This document shows positions 49,855 through 58,359 of a stretch of 61,210 nucleotides of DNA, piece by piece (position 1 is the stretch's first letter; each line of letters starts with the position of its first letter). The DNA comes from Promethearchaeota archaeon. Its GTDB lineage: Archaea; Asgardarchaeota; Lokiarchaeia; Sigyniarchaeales; SOKP01. Under the pieces are notes generated by a model. That model was not told the DNA's origin. It saw only the letters and a program-made list of their open reading frames with translations, and searched no databases. The stretch covers positions 1 to 61,210 of the forward strand of contig JBHLLT010000017.1 of the NCBI GenBank assembly GCA_048938855.1, read 5' to 3'. The position numbers were made by a program, and so were the translations under genes.

Positions 49855-50475
49855 TTATTTCACTAATGTCTGGGAAAGTTTAACTGTTATGTCTGCGATA
49901 TCTTTTTGAAGTAGTTTAACTTCTTTCTCATTCTGAATTACATCCTGCATATGATGGTTCAATTTTCTTTTTTCCTCTTTATAAGATTCTCTTAATGTTA
50001 GGGCTTTTTTAGGGCTTTTCTTTTGAATTGCTGTTAAATATTTTAATTGATATCTTCCCAATTTAATCCGAATATTCGCTGCATGCATTTTAGAATTTGC
50101 CAATATAAATTTTTTTTTTGCTAACTTTTCTTCAAGTTCTGCTATTTCCTTATGATGTTTTGCCAACTCTAATTGATTTTTAGCGACTTTCTCATGATAT
50201 GCTATATAATCTGTTTCATTTTTTATTACTGCTTCGGGAAATTTTAACAATTCCATGGATTTTATTTTGTTTTCTAATAATTCTTTATTATTTTCAACTA
50301 ATTTCATTCTTACTTGAGCTAATTTTATCTCTTTTTCAACGAAATTCTCTCTTGTTTTTACTTTTTTTAAGAGATTTTTAGCTAGCTTCTTTAATTCTAT
50401 CGCTACAAATTTTTCCTTTTCAGCAATAATAATATTCTCTTGAGCTTTCAAATTTAGATTAAAAACTTTTTCCAT
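49855..50475 (-). CDS. Hypothetical basic coiled-coil protein
   Basis: K/E/L-rich heptads over the whole 206 aa. Confidence 0.7.
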   Translation of the reverse strand: MEKVFNLNLKAQENIIIAEKEKFVAIELKKLAKNLLKKVKTRENFVEKEIKLAQVRMKLVENNKELLENKIKSMELLKFPEAVIKNETDYIAYHEKVAKNQLELAKHHKEIAELEEKLAKKKFILANSKMHAANIRIKLGRYQLKYLTAIQKKSPKKALTLRESYKEEKRKLNHHMQDVIQNEKEVKLLQKDIADITVKLSQTLVK

Positions 50476-50706: not shown

Positions 50707-51450
50707 TCATCGTGAATATAATTTATTTTTCCTATAAGAGCACATCCAAATAAAATTGTCAATAATTTTTTCTCCAGTTATTCTAGTCTTTTCGGTAATT
50801 CGTTCATCAAATAAATTGGGATTAAAGTAATATGGATTGTGAGTTTCTGGATGAAATTGAAACGCAAAAATAGGTTTTTTGTTATGTTTCATGTATTGTA
50901 TCATTATATACCCCATTGTACGGGAAGTACTAATAATCTTAAAATTTTCTTGAATTTTACAATCATTTGGAGAAACAAAATCTAGGTGGTGAACATTAAC
51001 TGGAATATTTTTTTGCGCTATTAATTCATCCGTTTCTTTAAGTAAAATAAAAATAATTTTCCCTCCTCCTCCAAGAAGTCTCATCCTAGATATTTGTGCT
51101 CCAAATGCATATGCTACTAAATGAATTCCGAAACACAGAGCGAGGATTGGAGTCCTATCCATTTTTTGAATTAATTCTAATTGCGGTTTAAACTTTTTTT
51201 TTAATTTCTCATCATAGTAAAAACTCGAGACATTCAATTCAGATCCTGAAAGGATAATCCCAATGCAGTCCTCCGCCATCTCTGGTTTGAATTGAGTGAA
51301 GTGAATAGTTTTTAACTCTATATCTGCTAAAGAGTTATTTATAATTGATTCTAATCGTGTTATTCTATCGGTAGGAAGAGCTCGAGAATAATTATCGATT
51401 AGAAGTATTTTATCTTTTTCTTCTTTTTCTAGAGAATTTTCTTCACTCAT
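50707..51450 (-). CDS. Class I glutamine amidotransferase-like protein (possible gamma-glutamyl hydrolase)
   Basis: ILLIDN, GIILSGS, LALCFGIHL (nucleophile Cys), FQFHPE (His-Glu). Confidence 0.88.
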   Translation of the reverse strand: MSEENSLEKEEKDKILLIDNYSRALPTDRITRLESIINNSLADIELKTIHFTQFKPEMAEDCIGIILSGSELNVSSFYYDEKLKKKFKPQLELIQKMDRTPILALCFGIHLVAYAFGAQISRMRLLGGGGKIIFILLKETDELIAQKNIPVNVHHLDFVSPNDCKIQENFKIISTSRTMGYIMIQYMKHNKKPIFAFQFHPETHNPYYFNPNLFDERITEKTRITGEKIIDNFIWMCSYRKNKLYSR

Positions 51451-51467
51451 CTATTATCTCCTTTTTA

Positions 51468-51833
51468 TCATATGTAATTTTTAATTAAAATTTCAGAGGG
51501 ATAGTAGGTATAAGCATCTATTTCATCACCGTTTTCAATTTTTACTCTTACTATTATTCTATGGTATAGTCTCCCTTCTCCCTCAATCATATCAAGGTGG
51601 TTAATGAGAGACATACTAACGCCATAATAGACCTCTCCTTTGACACTATATTTATTATCCTTAATAATAAATGGAAATCCTAAAGAGGGAGGCTCTATTT
51701 TTCTAAAATTAGGAAGAATAGCTTTCTCATAGTTTAATCCTTTAAGGACGTAATTTCGGCTTTGCCCATGTTGTAATGTGCCATAGACAAAGAGTCTATT
51801 ATGCAGATTTTCTCTAGAATTGTCTGTTTCCAT
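51468..51833 (-). CDS. Gamma-glutamylcyclotransferase (AIG2/GGACT/BtrG-like)
   Basis: LFVYGTL, VKGEVY, LDMIEG, YHR, AYTY. Confidence 0.92.
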   Translation of the reverse strand: METDNSRENLHNRLFVYGTLQHGQSRNYVLKGLNYEKAILPNFRKIEPPSLGFPFIIKDNKYSVKGEVYYGVSMSLINHLDMIEGEGRLYHRIIVRVKIENGDEIDAYTYYPSEILIKNYI

Positions 51834-51859
51834 TTTTTTAATAATATAATTGATTTTAA

Positions 51860-53323
51860 TTAGAAAAATGCATCTCCAAATAACCGATCTATTAAAGACT
51901 GTGATTCAGATTGACTTCTTAAGACTCGGTCGGTCTCTCTTAATGGAATCTTGAGATTCTGAACAACAAGATTATTTACAACCCTTATACCGTTAAAATT
52001 TGTTACCATTCCATTCATATCGTCATAAGAAAAATTATACTTAGCTTCTAGAGTACCCCGAACTTGTGTACCTGCTGTGATTTTATAGCGGTTTCCTCTC
52101 CGATCACTTACTATTCGTGGTTCCAGCAATTCCATAAAAACGTACTTTTTTCCCTGTTGTCTCATTTTTTCAATTTTTCTCGATTGATATTCAATAGTAA
52201 GTTCTTTCTGAGTTTGATTTGTTTGTTTTTCCTTCTTAAGCAGGTTTTCTATTTGAATGTTTAAATAATCTTGGTATTTCTCTGTCTCTTTGATCCATCT
52301 AAATAAGCTAGTTTCTAATAATTCAGTTTCACCAATCGATCTTCTAAAAACAGCGTTAAATCCATTCGCAATAGCATTTTCTACATTAACCGTATGATAT
52401 GGATCTTTTTGAATTTCTCCAGTAGCTTGGAGTTCAATTGCGTGAAGAGTAGAAACACAACAAAGATAAGCAATATCGAGCAAATCTTCAATACTATATT
52501 GTACATCAACAATCCGGACTTCTATACGATTTCTTGATGGTAATTCATCATTATCATCACTGATATTAGTAAAAGGACCTCTTGGAGATATGTCTACTAA
52601 ACGATCTCCTCTATTATTAGCAATAACCTTTTTAGAGAATTCATCCTCTTCAAATCCTATTTTCAATTTATATCTCATTCGACCATAATATCGCATTGGA
52701 ATTAAAGCTGGCCGATTTTCAGGAACTTGTATCTGTGCAAATCCATTTGATTTAAGAACTGTACTATTTGCACATCGATTACTAGCGATATTATTATAAT
52801 TTCCTCTATAAATATGTGAATTCGCTGAAATTCCAATTATTTCTGGAAGATAATCCCATAAATAATTATATACTACTTTCATTTCTTCAGGAGTCATCAA
52901 ACTGCCTTTTTTTTGAACAGAAACATTAATATGTGTTCCAGAAATTGGATTTGGGTCACTCTGTACAGGGTGGAGACTTTGGGCAAGGATTTTTACTCCC
53001 AATTGATTAGCTGCTTCTGTTACTAATTTTCTTCCCTCAAATACAGCCTGTTCTAAAGATTTTGGGGATAATGGTAAGGTTACATATTCAATTTGTGAAG
53101 GTGAAGGTTCAGCATCTAAACCTCGTATTTTAACTTGGAGTGAATTCAGAAAATTTTGATCTTGCTCAAGAATCTCTGCTGATTTCATCATTATGTCATC
53201 TGCTTTCTTTGCCAATGTTCCGTTCTTATTAATAATTAAGAATTCCTCTTCGATTCCACATAAGACTTGATAATCCTTATATATATCTGAATCAATCTCT
53301 TTACTCTTTTCATGAAATAACAT
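51860..53323 (-). CDS. Glutamate-cysteine ligase family 2 (GCS2/YbdK-like) carboxylate-amine ligase with C-terminal extension
   Basis: CGIEEEFLII, SQIEYVT, GTHINVS, ISANS, SNR, RIEVRIVD. Confidence 0.85.
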   Translation of the reverse strand: MLFHEKSKEIDSDIYKDYQVLCGIEEEFLIINKNGTLAKKADDIMMKSAEILEQDQNFLNSLQVKIRGLDAEPSPSQIEYVTLPLSPKSLEQAVFEGRKLVTEAANQLGVKILAQSLHPVQSDPNPISGTHINVSVQKKGSLMTPEEMKVVYNYLWDYLPEIIGISANSHIYRGNYNNIASNRCANSTVLKSNGFAQIQVPENRPALIPMRYYGRMRYKLKIGFEEDEFSKKVIANNRGDRLVDISPRGPFTNISDDNDELPSRNRIEVRIVDVQYSIEDLLDIAYLCCVSTLHAIELQATGEIQKDPYHTVNVENAIANGFNAVFRRSIGETELLETSLFRWIKETEKYQDYLNIQIENLLKKEKQTNQTQKELTIEYQSRKIEKMRQQGKKYVFMELLEPRIVSDRRGNRYKITAGTQVRGTLEAKYNFSYDDMNGMVTNFNGIRVVNNLVVQNLKIPLRETDRVLRSQSESQSLIDRLFGDAFF

Positions 53324-53419
53324 GATAGATCATCTCTATTCTGCTATAAAATCTCTTGTAACATTAAAAGAAACAATAATTAAAAAATTATTAATTTAGA
53401 ATTTAAAAATAAAGAGATA

Positions 53420-54778
53420 TCATTTAAACATTTCCATAAAAGCTCCAAGGCGAGTCTTGACTTGCTCGATATTTTCTCCCATTTTATTGAAATTTAAAGC
53501 AATTGTGGGAATTTCCAACTCTCTTCTTAGTTTTTCTCTAAGCATAGCATAACAGTTCGATATTGAATGACAACCATAAAGCTGAATAAAAATTAAGCCA
53601 TCTGCCTTTAAACTTCTCGCTAATCGAAGATAGGAATCTGTTAATTTATCATTATCGCAACCAATGCCATTTGTATTTGCTTTCATTAAATATCTAGCAT
53701 AAGCTTCAATAGGGTCAGTATTATTTGATATTGGAATATCTTCCAAAAACAATAAGAGATCCCAATCTCCATATAACGCTCTTCCTCCTAATTCATATAT
53801 AATATCATGAGTTTTAGGTTCCCATCCACCAAACATCGGGGTAACAAGGATTTTTGGCATATTTGATACATCCATACCTATTTGATTTTTAATTCTGCCT
53901 TTCATTTCTGTTAATAAAGATGAAATGTTATCCCTATACCTCGAAGCATTGGAATTATAATCATGAAAACTTATGCTTAATAATGCAAGAATTTCACTAA
54001 AAGTTGCAGGATTACATGGGAGAAAGTCAGATGTACCTATTTCATAGATAATTTTCTTATAAGTTTGATGTATTTGATTAGCTGTTTGAAAATGACTTCT
54101 TAATGCATTGTCGGAATAGTCATAATCACTGATTTTTGCCAACTCGTCTAATCCATTGGAAATATTATCAACAAACAGCTCTATTGAATTGCCGATATCT
54201 CTGGGAGGCACATCTACCCATATTTGCTTCGAAGGATTACCAATTGCTGCAATAGATTCTAAATATTTATTCCACGCACTACACCTTATCGTAAAATTAA
54301 GATTTGCCGCGCAATTTTTACCCTTTGATACATTCATTCCGTAAAGAGACTTAATTCCATAACAAAAATCACTTGATAGACCACTTTCTATGCCAAGGTC
54401 AAACATTTCATTATATTTTTCATTAATAACTTCTATTACATTTTCAATAATGTTATCAACTGTTTGACTTATGTCTTTAATTCCAAGATCTTTAACAAAA
54501 CCTAGAAAATTGGAGACTCTATTCCAACCAAATATACTGGATGCTGATCCTAAATATGTGAGATATTTGTGAATTTTAAATTCATGCATCCTAATTGGAA
54601 AAACAGGTATTAAATCTGGAAACGCATATACTAAATCTGAAAAAGGTAATGCTACAGATATTAATTTCTTATTTTCTCTAAATTTTTTTCTCTTTAAGTA
54701 ATCTCTTCCAGTTAAAAAATTATATGCCATTCGTAATACGGAAGAAAATCTAATTAGTTCATCAGCCACTAAACTCAT
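53420..54778 (-). CDS. 2-hydroxyacyl-CoA dehydratase subunit (HgdA/FldB-like)
   Basis: GLSSDFCYG, IRCSAW, ADGLIF..LYGC, IPTIAL, EQVKTRLGAFMEM. Confidence 0.85.
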   Translation of the reverse strand: MSLVADELIRFSSVLRMAYNFLTGRDYLKRKKFRENKKLISVALPFSDLVYAFPDLIPVFPIRMHEFKIHKYLTYLGSASSIFGWNRVSNFLGFVKDLGIKDISQTVDNIIENVIEVINEKYNEMFDLGIESGLSSDFCYGIKSLYGMNVSKGKNCAANLNFTIRCSAWNKYLESIAAIGNPSKQIWVDVPPRDIGNSIELFVDNISNGLDELAKISDYDYSDNALRSHFQTANQIHQTYKKIIYEIGTSDFLPCNPATFSEILALLSISFHDYNSNASRYRDNISSLLTEMKGRIKNQIGMDVSNMPKILVTPMFGGWEPKTHDIIYELGGRALYGDWDLLLFLEDIPISNNTDPIEAYARYLMKANTNGIGCDNDKLTDSYLRLARSLKADGLIFIQLYGCHSISNCYAMLREKLRRELEIPTIALNFNKMGENIEQVKTRLGAFMEMFK

Positions 54779-54780
54779 TC

Positions 54781-55917
54781 TTACATCATCTCTAAAAAAG
54801 CTTCTATTCTTGTAGTTAATTGACCTCTATTCGCTCTAGAATAATCTCTTTCTAAATTTAACACTTGAATCCCTTCACTTTGTAAGCGATTTTTCAAATG
54901 GCTTGACATTATTAACATATGATCACAGAATTTTATGATATGATTAATAACTCCTAAATTTTTACCATATTTAGCTTGAAATTCCTTATAATAATTCTTT
55001 ATTAGAGTTGTTTTATTTTCTAAGAAATTTGGTACTGAATGATCACCATAGATATTATTTTTGAACCTTAGAGTTAATAGATCAATGGGATCGTTTGATG
55101 AGTTGATTTCATCATCATCTATTATTTGGGAATAGTAATTATATCCAATCCAAGAATCAAAAAAAGTAATATTTCCACCTCCTTCTTCAATCAAATCGAT
55201 TAAATAATCATTTACAAAGATTGAACAACCAGTTAATAAGATGTTTTTTGATTTTTCTAAAAAATTATCTTTAGTTTGACTAAGATTATCATACTCTCGT
55301 TCTAACTCGGGCATTATTTCTGGACCGAATAACATTGCTTTATGAAGAAGTTTCAGTTTAGTTGAGCCCTTAATTGGCAATTCATTTAATTTCTTTAGGA
55401 TTTTTTTAAATTGATTATATTTTTTAATACTATCTAACAACATTTCCTTATTAATAATGGAACCTTGAATTTCTTCTAATTGATTAATTAAATTTTTTAT
55501 TTCTAATTTAAAGTACTCCAAACTATTCTCATTTCTAGTATATGAAAGATAAAAATCCAATCGTTTAATATTGAAATATTTACTAATAACTTCTGATGTG
55601 CAAATATCACTAACGCAATGGTTGGATACAATAAAGTAATCTACTAAATCTAAGAAATTATATTGGCTTAGTTTTAAAGAATATAGCCCGATGCATGACT
55701 GAGCAAATGCGCAAGTAGATGGAGGTAAATAATCATGACTAGCATCCATTAAATCATCATTTCCTGCAAATATTAATCGTAATGGGATGAAACCTGCAGC
55801 ATCTAACAATTCTTCCGGAATATTATCATGAGAGATATATGCTATAATTTTTTTACCTTTTTCTTTTTTTTCTCTTAGAAATGAAGCATACTCAGATAAA
55901 AGTTCTGCATTATCCAT
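54781..55917 (-). CDS. 2-hydroxyacyl-CoA dehydratase subunit (HgdB/FldC-like)
   Basis: IPEELLDAAGFIP, PSTCAFAQS, NHC, ILLTG, IKFCD, LERDY....GQLTTRIEAFLEM. Confidence 0.9.
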   Translation of the reverse strand: MDNAELLSEYASFLREKKEKGKKIIAYISHDNIPEELLDAAGFIPLRLIFAGNDDLMDASHDYLPPSTCAFAQSCIGLYSLKLSQYNFLDLVDYFIVSNHCVSDICTSEVISKYFNIKRLDFYLSYTRNENSLEYFKLEIKNLINQLEEIQGSIINKEMLLDSIKKYNQFKKILKKLNELPIKGSTKLKLLHKAMLFGPEIMPELEREYDNLSQTKDNFLEKSKNILLTGCSIFVNDYLIDLIEEGGGNITFFDSWIGYNYYSQIIDDDEINSSNDPIDLLTLRFKNNIYGDHSVPNFLENKTTLIKNYYKEFQAKYGKNLGVINHIIKFCDHMLIMSSHLKNRLQSEGIQVLNLERDYSRANRGQLTTRIEAFLEMM

Positions 55918-56026
55918 TTTAGTTTTTAACTTCTATGAATTATTAGTCAAAAAAGAGTTAATGATACATAAAATTTTTCATAATTAACCAAATCTTAACT
56001 CTTTAAAAATGAAGTTGAAAAAATAA

Positions 56027-56836
56027 TTAGCCTTTACCCTGATCATGAGCAATAAGCGCTGCGCCTATTGCGCCTGTCAATTGAGCAGTACTGGTTCCAT
56101 TAATTACCGGAATTACAATATCAAATCCTAATTCTTGTTCTAAAAAACTCTTAACTGCCACATTTTTAGCAACACCACCACAAAAAACTAAAAGAGGGGC
56201 AACACCTATGCGTTTTGCCATTCCTGCGACCCGTTTTGCGATAGATTTATGAATTCCAGCAGCTATATCCTCCTTATTTGAGCCCTTTGCAAAAAGAGAG
56301 ATTACCTCCGATTCAGCAAAAACAGTGCAGGTTGAACTAATTGAAGCAGGATTTTTAGACTTTAAAGCTAATTCTCCAATCTCATTAATCGGAACTTCAA
56401 GAGCTCCAGCCATTACTTCTATAAAACGGCCCGTTCCAGCAGCACACTTGTCGTTCATTTGAAAATCGATAACACTACCGGTTTTTTTAGATATCACAAT
56501 TGCTTTACTGTCTTGGCCACCAATGTCTATTACTGAGTGTGCGTCTGGATAGAAATATTGAACTCCCCGAGCATGAGCTGTTATTTCAGTAATACGATCA
56601 TCTGCAAATGATACTGTATTTCTCCCATATCCGGTGCTCATAACATATACATCACTCTTTTTCAAATTGTGTTGTTCCAAGAGATCATTAAACATGTTAC
56701 TCCCCACACGTTTAAAATCAAATGTTGATCGACCAACTCGAAAATCTACTAATTCAGTTTCTCTCAGTAGAGCAACTTTTGTCTCTAATGACCCAATGTC
56801 AATTCCAATATATGTCTTCAAGGTTAATCCATTCAA
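56027..56836 (-). CDS. 2-hydroxyacyl-CoA dehydratase activase (HgdC/BadF-type ASKHA ATPase)
   Basis: GIDIGS..TK, STGYGR, ITEITAHARG, IDIGGQDSK, MNDKCAAGTGRF, ISSTCTVFAESE, GGVAKN. Confidence 0.96.
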   Translation of the reverse strand: MNGLTLKTYIGIDIGSLETKVALLRETELVDFRVGRSTFDFKRVGSNMFNDLLEQHNLKKSDVYVMSTGYGRNTVSFADDRITEITAHARGVQYFYPDAHSVIDIGGQDSKAIVISKKTGSVIDFQMNDKCAAGTGRFIEVMAGALEVPINEIGELALKSKNPASISSTCTVFAESEVISLFAKGSNKEDIAAGIHKSIAKRVAGMAKRIGVAPLLVFCGGVAKNVAVKSFLEQELGFDIVIPVINGTSTAQLTGAIGAALIAHDQGKG

Positions 56837-56890: not shown

Positions 56891-57604
56891 TTAGCTTAAT
56901 AAGAATACAGAAATCAAAACGGTTATAAAAAAGGCAAAAGTCATCTGTAATATATTTTTTAAAATAGATTCTTTAGAGACTACTCCTAAAAAAACACCAA
57001 GTAAAATTATACAGAATAATATTATTACAAAAGATATAATAAATATATACAGATTAGCATTAGGTACAAGGAAGAATGGAATTAAAGGTATTAATCCTCC
57101 TAAAAACGGTGAACCCCCATTTACACATGAAACAATTATACTCGCAAAATTTTCAGCCTTTTGTTGTAGAGTTTTAATCTTTTTCTCCCTTTTTCTTAAT
57201 CTAATTTTTGCTTTAGAATTTATGTTTTTATTTATTTTGATCAGCATTGCTTTTTCAATTTCTTTTATATCCTGAGAATCTTCTTTAAATTCGGTTTCTT
57301 CCTCACTAACATCAATGACCATTGCTCTCCTCAATTCTTCTTTAATTTTCTTCTGTTCGGCTTTCTCTGATAGATATGAACCAGTCAGACCTGAAATCAA
57401 CATTGAAATAGAACTCCCAACACCGGTCAATATAACATAATGACTATATACTGTTTGGTCACCTTCTTTTAAAATAAGTACAAAAAAGCCTAATAAAATA
57501 CCTAAAACCGTTAACATTCCATCATAAAAATTATTTACAAAATAGCGTCTTGCAATTGCCCATAAATTAGTGACTTTTGCATATATTCTGACTTTTTCCA
57601 ACAT
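56891..57604 (-). CDS. VIT1/CCC1-like membrane transporter
   Basis: ARRYFVNNFYDGMLT, SM.ISG..GSYLSEKAE, GGLIPLIPF. Confidence 0.85.
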   Translation of the reverse strand: MLEKVRIYAKVTNLWAIARRYFVNNFYDGMLTVLGILLGFFVLILKEGDQTVYSHYVILTGVGSSISMLISGLTGSYLSEKAEQKKIKEELRRAMVIDVSEEETEFKEDSQDIKEIEKAMLIKINKNINSKAKIRLRKREKKIKTLQQKAENFASIIVSCVNGGSPFLGGLIPLIPFFLVPNANLYIFIISFVIILFCIILLGVFLGVVSKESILKNILQMTFAFFITVLISVFLLS

Positions 57605-57708
57605 TTTCTTTACTATTTAACCAATAGTCTATAGAAAAATTACCCTTTTATTTGGATTTTATTTTACATTTAAAAAATTCATTATATAATTAGATTTTGA
57701 AACACCTT

Positions 57709-58359
57709 TTAGATACCAAGAAGTATCGAGATAATCAGCGTTACTACACCAGCAGTTATTAAATGTAAAGCATAACGTAGACGGCCTCCTCCTGAAATCT
57801 GCCCTAAAAATATGCCTAAATATACTAGCAAACCAGCAAGTATTCCATAAGAAATTATAAAATGTAATAAAGTCAGAGTTCCTCCAAAGAAAAAAGGAAT
57901 TAGAGGAAGAGAGCTTCCTAAAACTGGAGCTGCTCCATCTACCAAAGAAGCCAGGAGAGTTGCAAAACTTTCTGCTTTCTCAATTATTGTTTTAGGCTTT
58001 TTTTCTTTCTTTTTTTTTCTTGTATTTTTATTTGTATTATCTGTCTCAATTTCTACTTCTGCCATATCCTTTTTCATATCGATTACTTTTTTCTTTCTTT
58101 CAGCTTCCTCAGAAAGAAATGCTCCCCACAATCCACTAATTCCAATCGCAAGAGCAGTTGCAAATCCAGGTATAAGAACCTGCTGAGTCTCATACGATGT
58201 AGGATTTGGGAGAAAAAGTATAAAAATACCACTAACAATTCCAGCGCAAGTTAGAGCACCATCAAAAGCATTATTAAAAAATTTCCTTCTTGCTATTATT
58301 CCTAAATCTGACATCTTTGAATATTCCTTCCACTGGCGAATTCTATCTTTTAACTTCAT
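57709..58359 (-). CDS. VIT1/CCC1-like membrane transporter (tandem paralogue)
   Basis: ARRKFFNNAFDGALT, ISGLWGAFLSEEAE, SSLPLIPF. Confidence 0.85.
   Translation of the reverse strand: MKLKDRIRQWKEYSKMSDLGIIARRKFFNNAFDGALTCAGIVSGIFILFLPNPTSYETQQVLIPGFATALAIGISGLWGAFLSEEAERKKKVIDMKKDMAEVEIETDNTNKNTRKKKKEKKPKTIIEKAESFATLLASLVDGAAPVLGSSLPLIPFFFGGTLTLLHFIISYGILAGLLVYLGIFLGQISGGGRLRYALHLITAGVVTLIISILLGI

Follow-up and report, generated by a model that had tools for sequence, protein, structure and literature searches.

The ligase, cyclotransferase and amidotransferase genes

The window, by which we mean the whole stretch of 61,210 nucleotides that was analysed, comes from a Loki-type archaeon and carries on its minus strand three intact, co-oriented genes in the order ligase, GGACT and GATase, separated by gaps of 26 and 17 nt. 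The open reading frames lie exactly where the original prediction had placed them. Its statement that the catalytic motifs are intact in all three genes was also borne out, and the residues concerned are invariant among 34 members of the ligase family and 12 of the GATase family. The features of the locus are as follows.

51860..53323, minus strand: GCS2/YbdK-fold ATP-dependent carboxylate-amine ligase, the predicted "writer" (487 aa)
51468..51833, minus strand: GGACT/AIG2-type gamma-glutamyl(amine) cyclotransferase (121 aa)
50707..51450, minus strand: stand-alone class I GATase / peptidase C26-like thiol amidohydrolase (247 aa)
51863..52210, minus strand: extra C-terminal domain of the ligase (aa 372-487), a small beta-barrel according to predicted structure and hhalign
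53345..53350, minus strand: TTTATA, a possible archaeal TATA box, from reading of the sequence and a consensus scan

The TTTATA hexamer, which also emerged from the consensus scan, is located 22-27 nt upstream of the ligase ATG and might serve as the TATA box for a leaderless transcript of the trio. It falls within the 96-nt gap that separates the ligase gene from the upstream HGD-D gene, whose stop codon is followed by a T-rich run. The neighbourhood of the trio is, as originally stated, free of genes for glutathione synthetase, ergothioneine synthesis and the GMP synthase ATPase subunit. EgtB/EgtD and aminoglycoside genes are absent at the locus, no synthase gene adjoins the GATase gene, no thiol-dependent enzymes adjoin the trio, and no proteasome gene, Pup-like gene or Dop-like paralogue is found nearby. 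A search for defence systems with PADLOC gave no match, and such a role was rejected.

The ligase is the only GCS2-like gene of the genome, with no second homologue, and was omitted by a whole-genome Pfam scan. Its score against Pfam GCS2 (PF04107) is 25.2 bits (cut-off 21) over an alignment restricted to aa 23-121, and it reaches 44 bits against the NCBIfam YbdK subfamily model (TIGR02050, cut-off 176) and 27-44 bits against the Glu-Cys ligase equivalogs (cut-offs 332-427). A PDB sequence search returned no meaningful match. The AlphaFold model (pLDDT 90) finds YbdK (1R8G/1TT4) as the best structural match in the PDB (Foldseek E ~1e-15), followed by GS, PafA and GCL, and hhalign aligns aa 20-372, and only these, with a canonical 363-aa GCS2 protein at a probability of 98.9%. 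The GS-fold catalytic domain, the GhExE motif and the conserved metal/ATP residues are all present. The motif GIEEE occupies aa 23-27, and G23/E25/E27, E72, E79, H118, H131, R241, E268 and R270 are invariant across the 34 family members. The protein is a very divergent YbdK/GCS2-fold enzyme, for which a glutamyl-ligating function is predicted. An internal insert had also been proposed for this protein. The region from 155 to 310 is indeed longer than in canonical GCS2 enzymes and contains an invariant tyrosine (Y218), but the excess is modest, at ~12-17 aa per block. Membership of the phage amidoligases was rejected, since the ligase matches no amidoligase PHROG (only phrog_12863, E 0.006); a comparison with Amidoligase_2 gave no match at E up to 0.1.

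Residues 372-487 remain outside the hhalign alignment and form a confident, separate beta-barrel in the AlphaFold model (pLDDT 90.6 when folded alone), such that the extra beta-rich C-terminal domain described in the original prediction is real. The barrel is kept in all full-length members of the family, down to 28% identity. It bears a weak resemblance to SH3b, WYL, Sm, Tudor and BirA-C domains (Z at most 5.1, Foldseek E at least 0.07). Foldseek found nothing in the PDB at E up to 0.001, a wide VIA-align search gave generic small-barrel matches only, and the ESM Atlas yielded no usable match. No specific fold was therefore assigned, and the proposal that this domain selects the target is not supported by matches of so generic a kind.

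Assignment of the two downstream genes is more straightforward. The GGACT protein scores 62.3 bits against Pfam GGACT (PF06094, cut-off 22.8), has PDB relatives in 2G0Q, 2JQV and human GGACT (3JUB), and matches phage GGCT phrog_2520 at 2e-13. Its catalytic features comprise YGTL at 17-20 and E84, the counterpart in the alignment of the conserved xEG-motif Glu of 2G0Q/2JQV. The GATase protein scores 57.1 bits against Pfam GATase (PF00117, cut-off 22.8) and 26.3 bits against Peptidase_C26 (PF07722, cut-off 20.5), the latter aligning over aa 58-119 only; many members of its family carry a precomputed PF07722 match. It has the class I fold, and the triad C106/H200/E202 is invariant in 12 members. 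It is not a GMP synthase subunit, because it reaches only 57 bits against subunit A (NF001975, GuaA-A; cut-off 198) and because a fused GuaA (GATase and GMP_synt_C in one 521-aa frame) is encoded on contig C7 of the same genome.

An obligate but interchangeable partnership

In a survey of one genome per prokaryotic species, we recovered 79 species-level ligase loci, 78 of which could be evaluated. A partner from a glutamyl-amide-cleaving family lies within 4 kb of the ligase gene in every one of the 78, distributed as follows.

Ligase, GGACT and class I GATase: 32 species-level loci (Loki)
Ligase and class I GATase only: 11 species-level loci
Ligase, GGACT and a 297-aa class II (Ntn) GATase-like protein: 7 species-level loci (Heimdall)
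Ligase and GGACT only: 5 species-level loci
Ligase and an FGase/poly-gamma-glutamate-hydrolase-like protein: 23 species-level loci (Njord, Baldr, Borr, Sif and others)

The ligase is thus obligately paired with a partner that is itself interchangeable. The 297-aa Heimdall protein begins with Met-Cys and has weak GATase_6, EgtC and PurF-Ntn matches, and from its sequence it looks like a class II GATase. Among the 23 loci with an FGase-like partner, 11 also encode a RimK/YheCD/TTL-like ATP-grasp ligase, and the FGase-like partner of Borrarchaeia forms a fusion protein with a genuine archaeal histone fold (NF043032, 53 bits). The window has neither the class II GATase-like nor the ATP-grasp partner, both of which are restricted to other lineages of the ligase family; a tblastn search of this genome found no orthologue of the FGase-like partner, with a distant FGase match on contig C49 only.

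Conservation of the neighbourhood had been suggested as a check on the original prediction. The trio recurs with the same order and spacing in the 32 Loki loci and is therefore far more than a chance arrangement. All three pairwise combinations of ligase, GGACT and GATase are found, in different lineages, which upholds the claim that the genes are functionally linked. In one Heimdall family (f24), a GGACT orthologue is present in all 11 ligase-bearing genomes but in only 1 of 10 without the ligase. The GATase forms its own clade, confined to the window's family and a sister family of the same taxonomic order (32 of 301 genomes). In the ligase tree, partner type tracks clades, and a single replacement of FGase by GGACT/GATase is placed at the base of a Loki and Heimdall crown clade with 100/100 support.

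The ligase family is archaeal throughout, comprising 37 representative clusters (50% identity) among 1.8 billion proteins, and its distribution is patchy, with members in 48 of the phylum's 301 genomes and in 13 of the 22 from the genus. Most members are from Asgard archaea, but restriction to this group was rejected, as MAGs bearing the labels Methanobacteriota, Methanopyri, Korarchaeota (Methanodesulfokora) and Geothermarchaeota also contain members. Several genomes of the same genus retain a GGACT-GATase pair at the same chromosomal site without the ligase, and the ligase gene is split in one genome (L063). Either the removers also have a ligase-independent substrate, therefore, or the ligase is being lost; the supposition that the system is self-contained is not supported.

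Proposed formation and removal of a gamma-glutamyl amide

Because relatives of the ligase across archaea always adjoin some such remover, the three enzymes of the trio very probably work together. Characterised members of the partner enzyme families cleave glutamyl amide bonds, and GGACT chemistry specifically requires a gamma-glutamyl amide. Cleavage of glutamyl amide bonds is the common denominator of the four unrelated partner folds, and the switching of partners across these folds supports the view that a gamma-glutamyl amide is both made and removed. Such formation and removal is most simply the chemistry of the trio, although the characterised reaction of FGase is on N-acyl-glutamate and not on a gamma-glutamyl bond, which counts against it. 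Our preferred explanation, which we rate as about as likely as not, is more specifically that the trio acts on a small molecule, to which a gamma-glutamyl group is first attached and from which it is then taken off. The analysis establishes the gene structure, the folds, the intact catalytic residues and the pairing of the ligase family with glutamyl-amide-cleaving enzymes; that the carboxylate is glutamate, in which direction and order the steps run, and that the substrate is a small molecule and not a protein are inferences. Of the writer with two erasers originally proposed, the chemistry is supported by partner switching, while self-containment and a protein target are not.

In this module, the ligase would use ATP to activate the gamma-carboxylate of glutamate and couple this to a substrate amino group, the substrate being perhaps an amine or an amino acid. 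The GGACT enzyme would cyclise the glutamyl part of the gamma-glutamyl amide, giving 5-oxoproline and the free amine, and the GATase, a thiol amidohydrolase in the manner of PuuD, AtdA2 or gamma-glutamyl hydrolase, would give glutamate and the amine. The two removers probably operate at different points of the pathway, with one likely to free the final, possibly transformed, product and the other likely to limit or salvage the primary conjugate.

Further observations run against the module as described, among them the GGACT-GATase pairs that persist where the ligase is missing. A simple on/off cycle does not explain the presence of two removers per operon. In addition, no known 5-oxoprolinase was found that would handle the GGACT product, neither PxpA nor Hydantoinase_B being detected in the genome (97% completeness).

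It is also possible, though unlikely, that the genes serve low-molecular-weight thiol metabolism, with the ligase acting as a gamma-glutamylcysteine (or gamma-Glu-X dipeptide) synthetase comparable to haloarchaeal GshA, the GGACT and GATase-like hydrolase acting as turnover enzymes in a partial gamma-glutamyl cycle, and the ATP-grasp ligase of the Njord and Baldr type adding a third residue like GshB. The GCS2/YbdK fold of the only such gene in the genome is consistent with this proposal, as are the weak matches of the ATP-grasp partner to GSH-S_ATP / glutathione synthetase and MptN/RimK. Glutathione is degraded by a class II GATase (yeast Dug3) and by GGCT-fold (ChaC) enzymes. However, GGACT-type enzymes favour gamma-glutamyl amines over gamma-glutamyl alpha-amino acids. 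A review of thiols in archaea notes GshA-family matches among the Asgard group (PMC7278568), but the ligase here scores 44 bits where the curated Glu-Cys ligase and YbdK models demand 176-427, and it carries a domain missing from known GCS2 enzymes. Its patchy occurrence would moreover be odd for a main redox buffer, and the genes that adjoin the trio include none for thiol-dependent enzymes.

Rather improbable, in our judgement, is that GGACT and GATase constitute a breakdown module for gamma-glutamyl compounds that are taken in or salvaged, with the glutamate passing to fermentation through the neighbouring activase and HGD-D radical enzymes. The ligase would then be an accessory that prepares an amine for breakdown by gamma-glutamylating it, in the manner of the Puu or Atd routes. 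Two genera preserve the order VIT1-VIT1-activase-HGD-D-HGD-D-[ligase]-GGACT-GATase whether or not the ligase is present, and elsewhere the GGACT-GATase pair comes after an ABC importer or near a B12 / glutamate-mutase-like gene. Conversely, the linkage to HGD-D genes is limited to a shallow clade, in which it holds for 26 of 32 loci with ligases at 69% identity or more, and is seen nowhere else, so that a six-gene operon with a radical dehydratase is not a general feature. The 96-nt gap with its TATA-like element also intervenes between the ligase and HGD-D genes, and we know of no archaeal members of the HGD-D family with known substrates.

We consider it improbable that the target is protein, with the ligase writing gamma-glutamyl groups onto lysine side chains or N-termini, the SH3/Tudor-like barrel docking the target, and GGACT, GATase-like or FGase-like enzymes erasing the mark. 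Such archaeal reversible protein gamma-glutamylation would be in line with the shared fold of PafA (Pup ligase) and Dop (depupylase), which are among the structural matches, with the frequent binding of proteins or nucleic acids by barrels of the SH3/Tudor/Sm-like class, and with the resemblance of the ATP-grasp partner to the TTL/RimK protein glutamylases. The histone fusion in Borrarchaeia would point to chromatin proteins. Known GGACT/AIG2 enzymes, however, act on free small gamma-glutamyl amines, and the matches of the barrel are generic as well as weak. Across loci, the surroundings of the genes contain no conserved ORF of up to 125 aa, which speaks against a Pup-like tag; with no such tag and no evidence found for a protein target, the suggestion of protein lysines in the original prediction was not sustained. 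Small peptides rather than protein conjugates were inferred for analogous bacterial neighbourhoods (Iyer et al., PMC2588565).

Very improbable is a glutamine-dependent amidotransferase in which the ligase forms an acyl-phosphate that receives ammonia from the GATase, so that a carboxylate becomes a carboxamide, with GGACT as bystander or salvage enzyme: ligase-GATase pairs without GGACT occur in 11 species, class I and class II glutaminases interchange between Loki and Heimdall loci as in true amidotransferases, and the nearest curated GATase models are synthase subunits (GuaA-A, TrpG and CarA, all far below cut-offs), but the FGase-like partners of 23 species, the GGACT-only loci and the tight co-occurrence of GGACT and ligase are left unexplained, GGACT-GATase pairs occur without the ligase, and the GATase is also above the Peptidase_C26 threshold.

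Relation to known systems and significance

In the literature searched, no such system is described for Asgard archaea, and to that extent the claim of novelty holds. A comparable bacterial theme was nonetheless predicted in 2008 by Iyer, Burroughs and Aravind, who described neighbourhoods in which a carboxylate-amine ligase is accompanied by a GAT-like peptidase or an Aig2 cyclotransferase (PMC2588565), and this theme is common in phages. In both cases a GS/GCS-fold ligase lies beside a GAT-like thiol peptidase and/or an Aig2-type cyclotransferase, the function is predicted only, and the wider bacterial set includes ATP-grasp ligases and class II GATases. The ligase described here differs in falling outside the Amidoligase_2 and phage amidoligase families, as a separate GCS2-derived, archaea-only clade with a C-terminal beta-barrel, and the window has a class I GATase and a single ligase. 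Of the GGCT, class II GATase and ATP-grasp ligase that accompany the phiEco32-type cassette, the window offers a match for the first only, that of its GGACT to phrog_2520, the other two being confined to other lineages of the ligase family. This cassette was reportedly described by Iyer et al. in 2009.

In the pathways for aniline and 1-naphthylamine (AtdA1/AtdA2 and NpaA1/NpaA2), what a GS-fold ligase makes is reversed by a GAT-like hydrolase (PMC11335346). These pairs and PuuA/PuuD, which acts on putrescine, resemble the trio as it is predicted to work, in that an ATP-dependent GS-fold ligase gamma-glutamylates an amine and an adjacent class I GAT-like hydrolase takes the glutamyl group off or limits the conjugate (PMC11335346). 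However, their ligases are GS type I-like rather than GCS2, and their operons encode conjugate-oxidising enzymes and no cyclotransferase, whereas the trio has no consistently adjacent modifying enzyme. The ligase shares with the YbdK/GshA glutamate-cysteine ligases the catalytic fold and the GhExE metal/ATP motif, and its best structural matches belong to this group, but it has only ~15-17% identity to them, scores below the curated cut-offs, carries ~115 extra C-terminal residues and is always paired with a hydrolase. Gamma-glutamyl handles of a transient kind are used in two further pathways. In ergothioneine synthesis, EgtA is a GCS2-type ligase, and the class II GATase EgtC later removes the glutamate; in the butirosin pathway (BtrJ/BtrG), BtrG has the GGACT fold and strips a gamma-glutamyl protecting group. 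In the Heimdall loci the ligase similarly has as partners GGACT and a Met-Cys protein that is EgtC-like (EgtC similarity being marginal, at 19 bits), but the trio lacks the EgtB/EgtD and aminoglycoside genes of those pathways. With PafA/Dop pupylation it has in common the ligase superfamily and a writer/eraser logic on a gamma-glutamyl isopeptide, but the erasers of the trio have unrelated folds, and the Pup-like, proteasome and Dop-like genes are missing from its surroundings.

The logic is shared with phage cassettes and with the Puu, Atd, Egt and Btr systems, while the ligase family itself is uncharacterised and archaea-only. The gene context provides a clear hypothesis that is cheap to test, namely that a gamma-glutamyl amide is made by the ligase and cleaved by the products of the neighbouring genes. 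The exchange of the partner between four non-homologous folds amounts to a natural experiment, from which the chemistry they share can be defined. With the amine identified, the biochemistry of Asgard archaea (Loki and Heimdall) would gain a metabolite or modification, and there would be a first experimental handle on the long-unexplained bacterial and phage gene sets that combine an amidoligase, a cyclotransferase and an amidotransferase. If the target were a protein, the finding would constitute a new archaeal post-translational mark.

The gene trio and its ligase

Open reading frames for the three genes were found on the minus strand at exactly the predicted positions, with the predicted intergenic gaps of 26 and 17 nt.

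51860-53323, minus strand: ligase, 487 aa; GCS2 (Pfam) at 25.2 bits, narrowly above the cut-off, with the match limited to aa 23-121
51468-51833, minus strand: GGACT cyclotransferase, 121 aa; GGACT (Pfam) at 62.3 bits
50707-51450, minus strand: class I GATase, 247 aa; Pfam match at 57.1 bits, with Peptidase_C26 matched in part
53420-56836 and 56891-58359, minus strand, upstream of the trio: BcrAD/HgdC-type activase, two HGD-D and two VIT1 transporter genes
49855-50475, minus strand, 231 nt downstream of the GATase: 206-aa protein matching no Pfam family

The 206-aa protein, a homologue of which lies close to the GATase at a single further locus, L058, is followed by stomatin and USP genes. A TTTATA motif lies 22-27 nt 5' of the ligase ATG, inside the 96-nt gap preceding this gene, a placement that would be compatible with a separate, leaderless trio transcript.

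The AlphaFold model of the ligase (pLDDT 90) has YbdK as its closest PDB neighbour (1R8G and 1TT4; E about 1e-15); glutamine synthetases, PafA/Dop and GCLs rank next. Ten residues (G23, E25, E27, E72, E79, H118, H131, R241, E268 and R270) are invariant in a 34-sequence alignment of the family, across the whole of which the C-terminal region is also conserved. When its profile was compared with that of a canonical GCS2 protein of 363 aa, only aa 20-372 aligned (98.9% probability), and aa 372-487 therefore represent an addition. This is the extra C-terminal domain of the original prediction, and it yields a confident small beta-barrel when folded alone. The internal insert that had also been proposed does correspond to extra residues, but these amount to merely about 12-17 per block relative to the canonical protein. 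The barrel bears a weak, generic likeness to SH3b, WYL, Sm, Tudor and BirA C-terminal domains (Z at most 5.1); Foldseek returned no match at E up to 0.001, and an ESM Atlas search for relatives found nothing.

Distribution of the ligase and its partners

The ligase family is tiny, with 37 representatives at 50% identity, nearly all of about 480 aa, among 1.84 billion proteins. Members occur in 48 of 301 genomes sampled from the phylum, including 13/22 from the genus of the window and 11/21 from one Heimdall/Hod family. A scan with one genome per prokaryotic species yielded 79 loci, mostly from Loki (Promethearchaeota) and Heimdall/Hod, then from Sif-, Borr-, Njord- and Baldrarchaeia. Because MAGs labelled Methanobacteriota, Methanopyri, Methanodesulfokora (Korarchaeota) and Geothermarchaeota also carry members, the family is archaeal and not strictly Asgard. 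NCBI phylum labels of MAG proteins 80-89% identical to the window ligase (Thor-, Hermod-, Hod-, Odin-, Heimdall- and Promethearchaeota) disagree and cannot all be right.

Partners were counted by tblastn of partner proteins against these loci, of which one is truncated. In all 78 evaluable loci the ligase adjoins a member of a glutamyl-amide-cleaving family, and these families span four unrelated folds.

Partners of the ligase in 78 evaluable loci
GGACT and class I GATase: 32 loci
FGase / poly-gamma-glutamate-hydrolase-like protein: 23 loci
Class I GATase only: 11 loci
GGACT and 297-aa protein: 7 loci
GGACT only: 5 loci

In a maximum-likelihood tree of the ligase, partner type tracks clades. 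One deep clade is marked by an FGase together with a YheCD/RimK/TTL/MptN-like ATP-grasp ligase (present in 11 of the 23 FGase-like loci), and the base of the other by a divergently transcribed FGase. Loki and Heimdall ligases with GGACT, with or without GATase, form a crown clade (support 100/100). Within the Heimdall family, a GGACT orthologue occurs in 11/11 ligase-bearing genomes versus 1/10 others.

The 297-aa protein (L001:9846-10739, Heimdall chromosome CP070695; homologues in L021, L022 and L025-L028) comes after GGACT in seven Heimdall/Hod genomes. It passes no Pfam threshold; given its Met-Cys-Arg-Leu-Leu-Gly start and weak matches to GATase_6 (E 3.6e-5), EgtC (E 6e-4) and PurF-Ntn, it resembles a class II (Ntn) GATase. 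These proteins seem to form an undescribed family of hydrolases that resemble class II amidotransferases.

Several loci carry further variations. The FGase-like partner of Candidatus Borrarchaeum weybense (L034:5517-6428, minus strand; also L035 and L036) has a genuine archaeal histone fold fused to its C-terminus (53.4 bits, above cut-off, with the NCBIfam archaeal histone model; CBFD_NFYB_HMF at E 1.8e-9); in another lineage (L046) an MTH865-like domain occupies this place. In lineages pairing the ligase with an FGase-like protein, 465-512-aa proteins encoded apart from the ligase (Borrarchaeum L064:4050-5489; also genomes G009, G020, G031, G050 and G058) contain a GGACT domain (aa 109-225), the remainder matching no Pfam family. 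Four Heimdall genomes (L001:7281-7955, L025, L026 and L028) have a co-oriented CCG-domain (HdrB-like cysteine-rich) gene immediately 5' of the ligase. In the non-Asgard loci, the ligase and FGase-like genes are separated by a gene for an Amidohydro_2 TIM-barrel hydrolase (L130:5425-6153, MAG labelled Methanobacteriota).

Predicted removers in genomes lacking the ligase

The class I GATase clade is limited to the family of the window and one sister family within its order (32/301 genomes). The module had been proposed to be self-contained, a view that is not supported: this clade, with or without GGACT, is also found in some dozen ligase-less genomes. In these, the GGACT-GATase pair or a lone GATase directly follows the same activase/HGD-D genes or an ABC importer. 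The removers, judging from these arrangements, can probably work without the ligase. All three pairwise gene combinations exist, a pattern that speaks for a functional link among all three genes. In locus L063 (G198:C35), a ligase broken into two ORFs (288 and 254 aa) lies directly 5' of an intact GGACT-GATase pair, which suggests ongoing ligase loss in some Loki genomes.

Neighbours of the ligase-less pair vary (L053:2182-5339; L060-L062; L054:10206-13021). The importer 5' of it consists of a fused permease and a MalK/TOBE ATPase; elsewhere the pair adjoins TusA- and DsrE-like small proteins and a LysR regulator, or is close to an opine-dehydrogenase-like gene and a B12-binding/glutamate-mutase-E-like gene. 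The run of activase, two HGD-D and two VIT1 genes is syntenic in two Loki genera, ligase present or absent. The GATase is often succeeded by a third HGD-D paralogue (4-nt overlap in L003), but not in the window.

Proposed gamma-glutamyl attachment and removal

The ligase would be an ATP-dependent gamma-glutamyl amide synthetase acting on some amine, with GGACT and the GATase as two mechanistically different removers of its product. PuuA/PuuD, EgtA/EgtC and BtrJ/BtrG also fit this logic of a glutamine synthetase-fold ligase and a glutamyl remover. Neither PxpA nor a Hydantoinase_B-type 5-oxoprolinase was found in the genome (97% completeness), nor was an orthologue of the FGase-like partner, and a defence-system search gave no matches.

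Thiol metabolism of the gamma-Glu-Cys type is unlikely; the ligase scores 44 bits against curated NCBIfam YbdK and Glu-Cys ligase models, far below their cut-offs of 176-427. In favour of this reading, the genome has no second GCS2 gene. One RimK/GSH-S-like ATP-grasp gene lies elsewhere in it. There is a slimmer chance of a breakdown module tied to radical enzymes: HGD-D linkage is restricted to 26 of the 32 trio loci (these 26 have ligase identities of 69% or more) and is read as shallow synteny rather than a defining part of the module. Protein glutamylation, raised originally with lysines as targets, is slightly more doubtful again; PafA/Dop are among the structural neighbours of the ligase, but no lineage has a conserved small ORF close to these genes that might encode a Pup-like tag. 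A glutamine-dependent amidotransferase is the most improbable. The GATase scores 57 bits against NCBIfam GMP synthase subunit A (far below the cut-off of 198), and the genome's GMP synthase is a fusion protein that carries a GATase of its own.

The ligase and its removers have close precedents. In the aniline and 1-naphthylamine systems, glutamylation by a GS-fold ligase is reversed or completed by a GAT-like hydrolase encoded next to it (PMC11335346); the predicted logic of the module matches theirs. Bacterial carboxylate-amine ligases, of a different family from the window ligase, have already been predicted beside GAT-like thiol peptidases or Aig2 cyclotransferases (PMC2588565), and the same theme recurs in prophages (PMC11318856). 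The GGACT protein matches a phage cyclotransferase PHROG; phage amidoligase PHROGs gave no match to the ligase. Given these characterised and predicted precedents, the trio is no new kind of system. Synthesis by the ligase and cleavage by two removers is the most economical reading, and we consider the chances evenly balanced that these genes form a module attaching gamma-glutamyl groups to, and removing them from, a small molecule.
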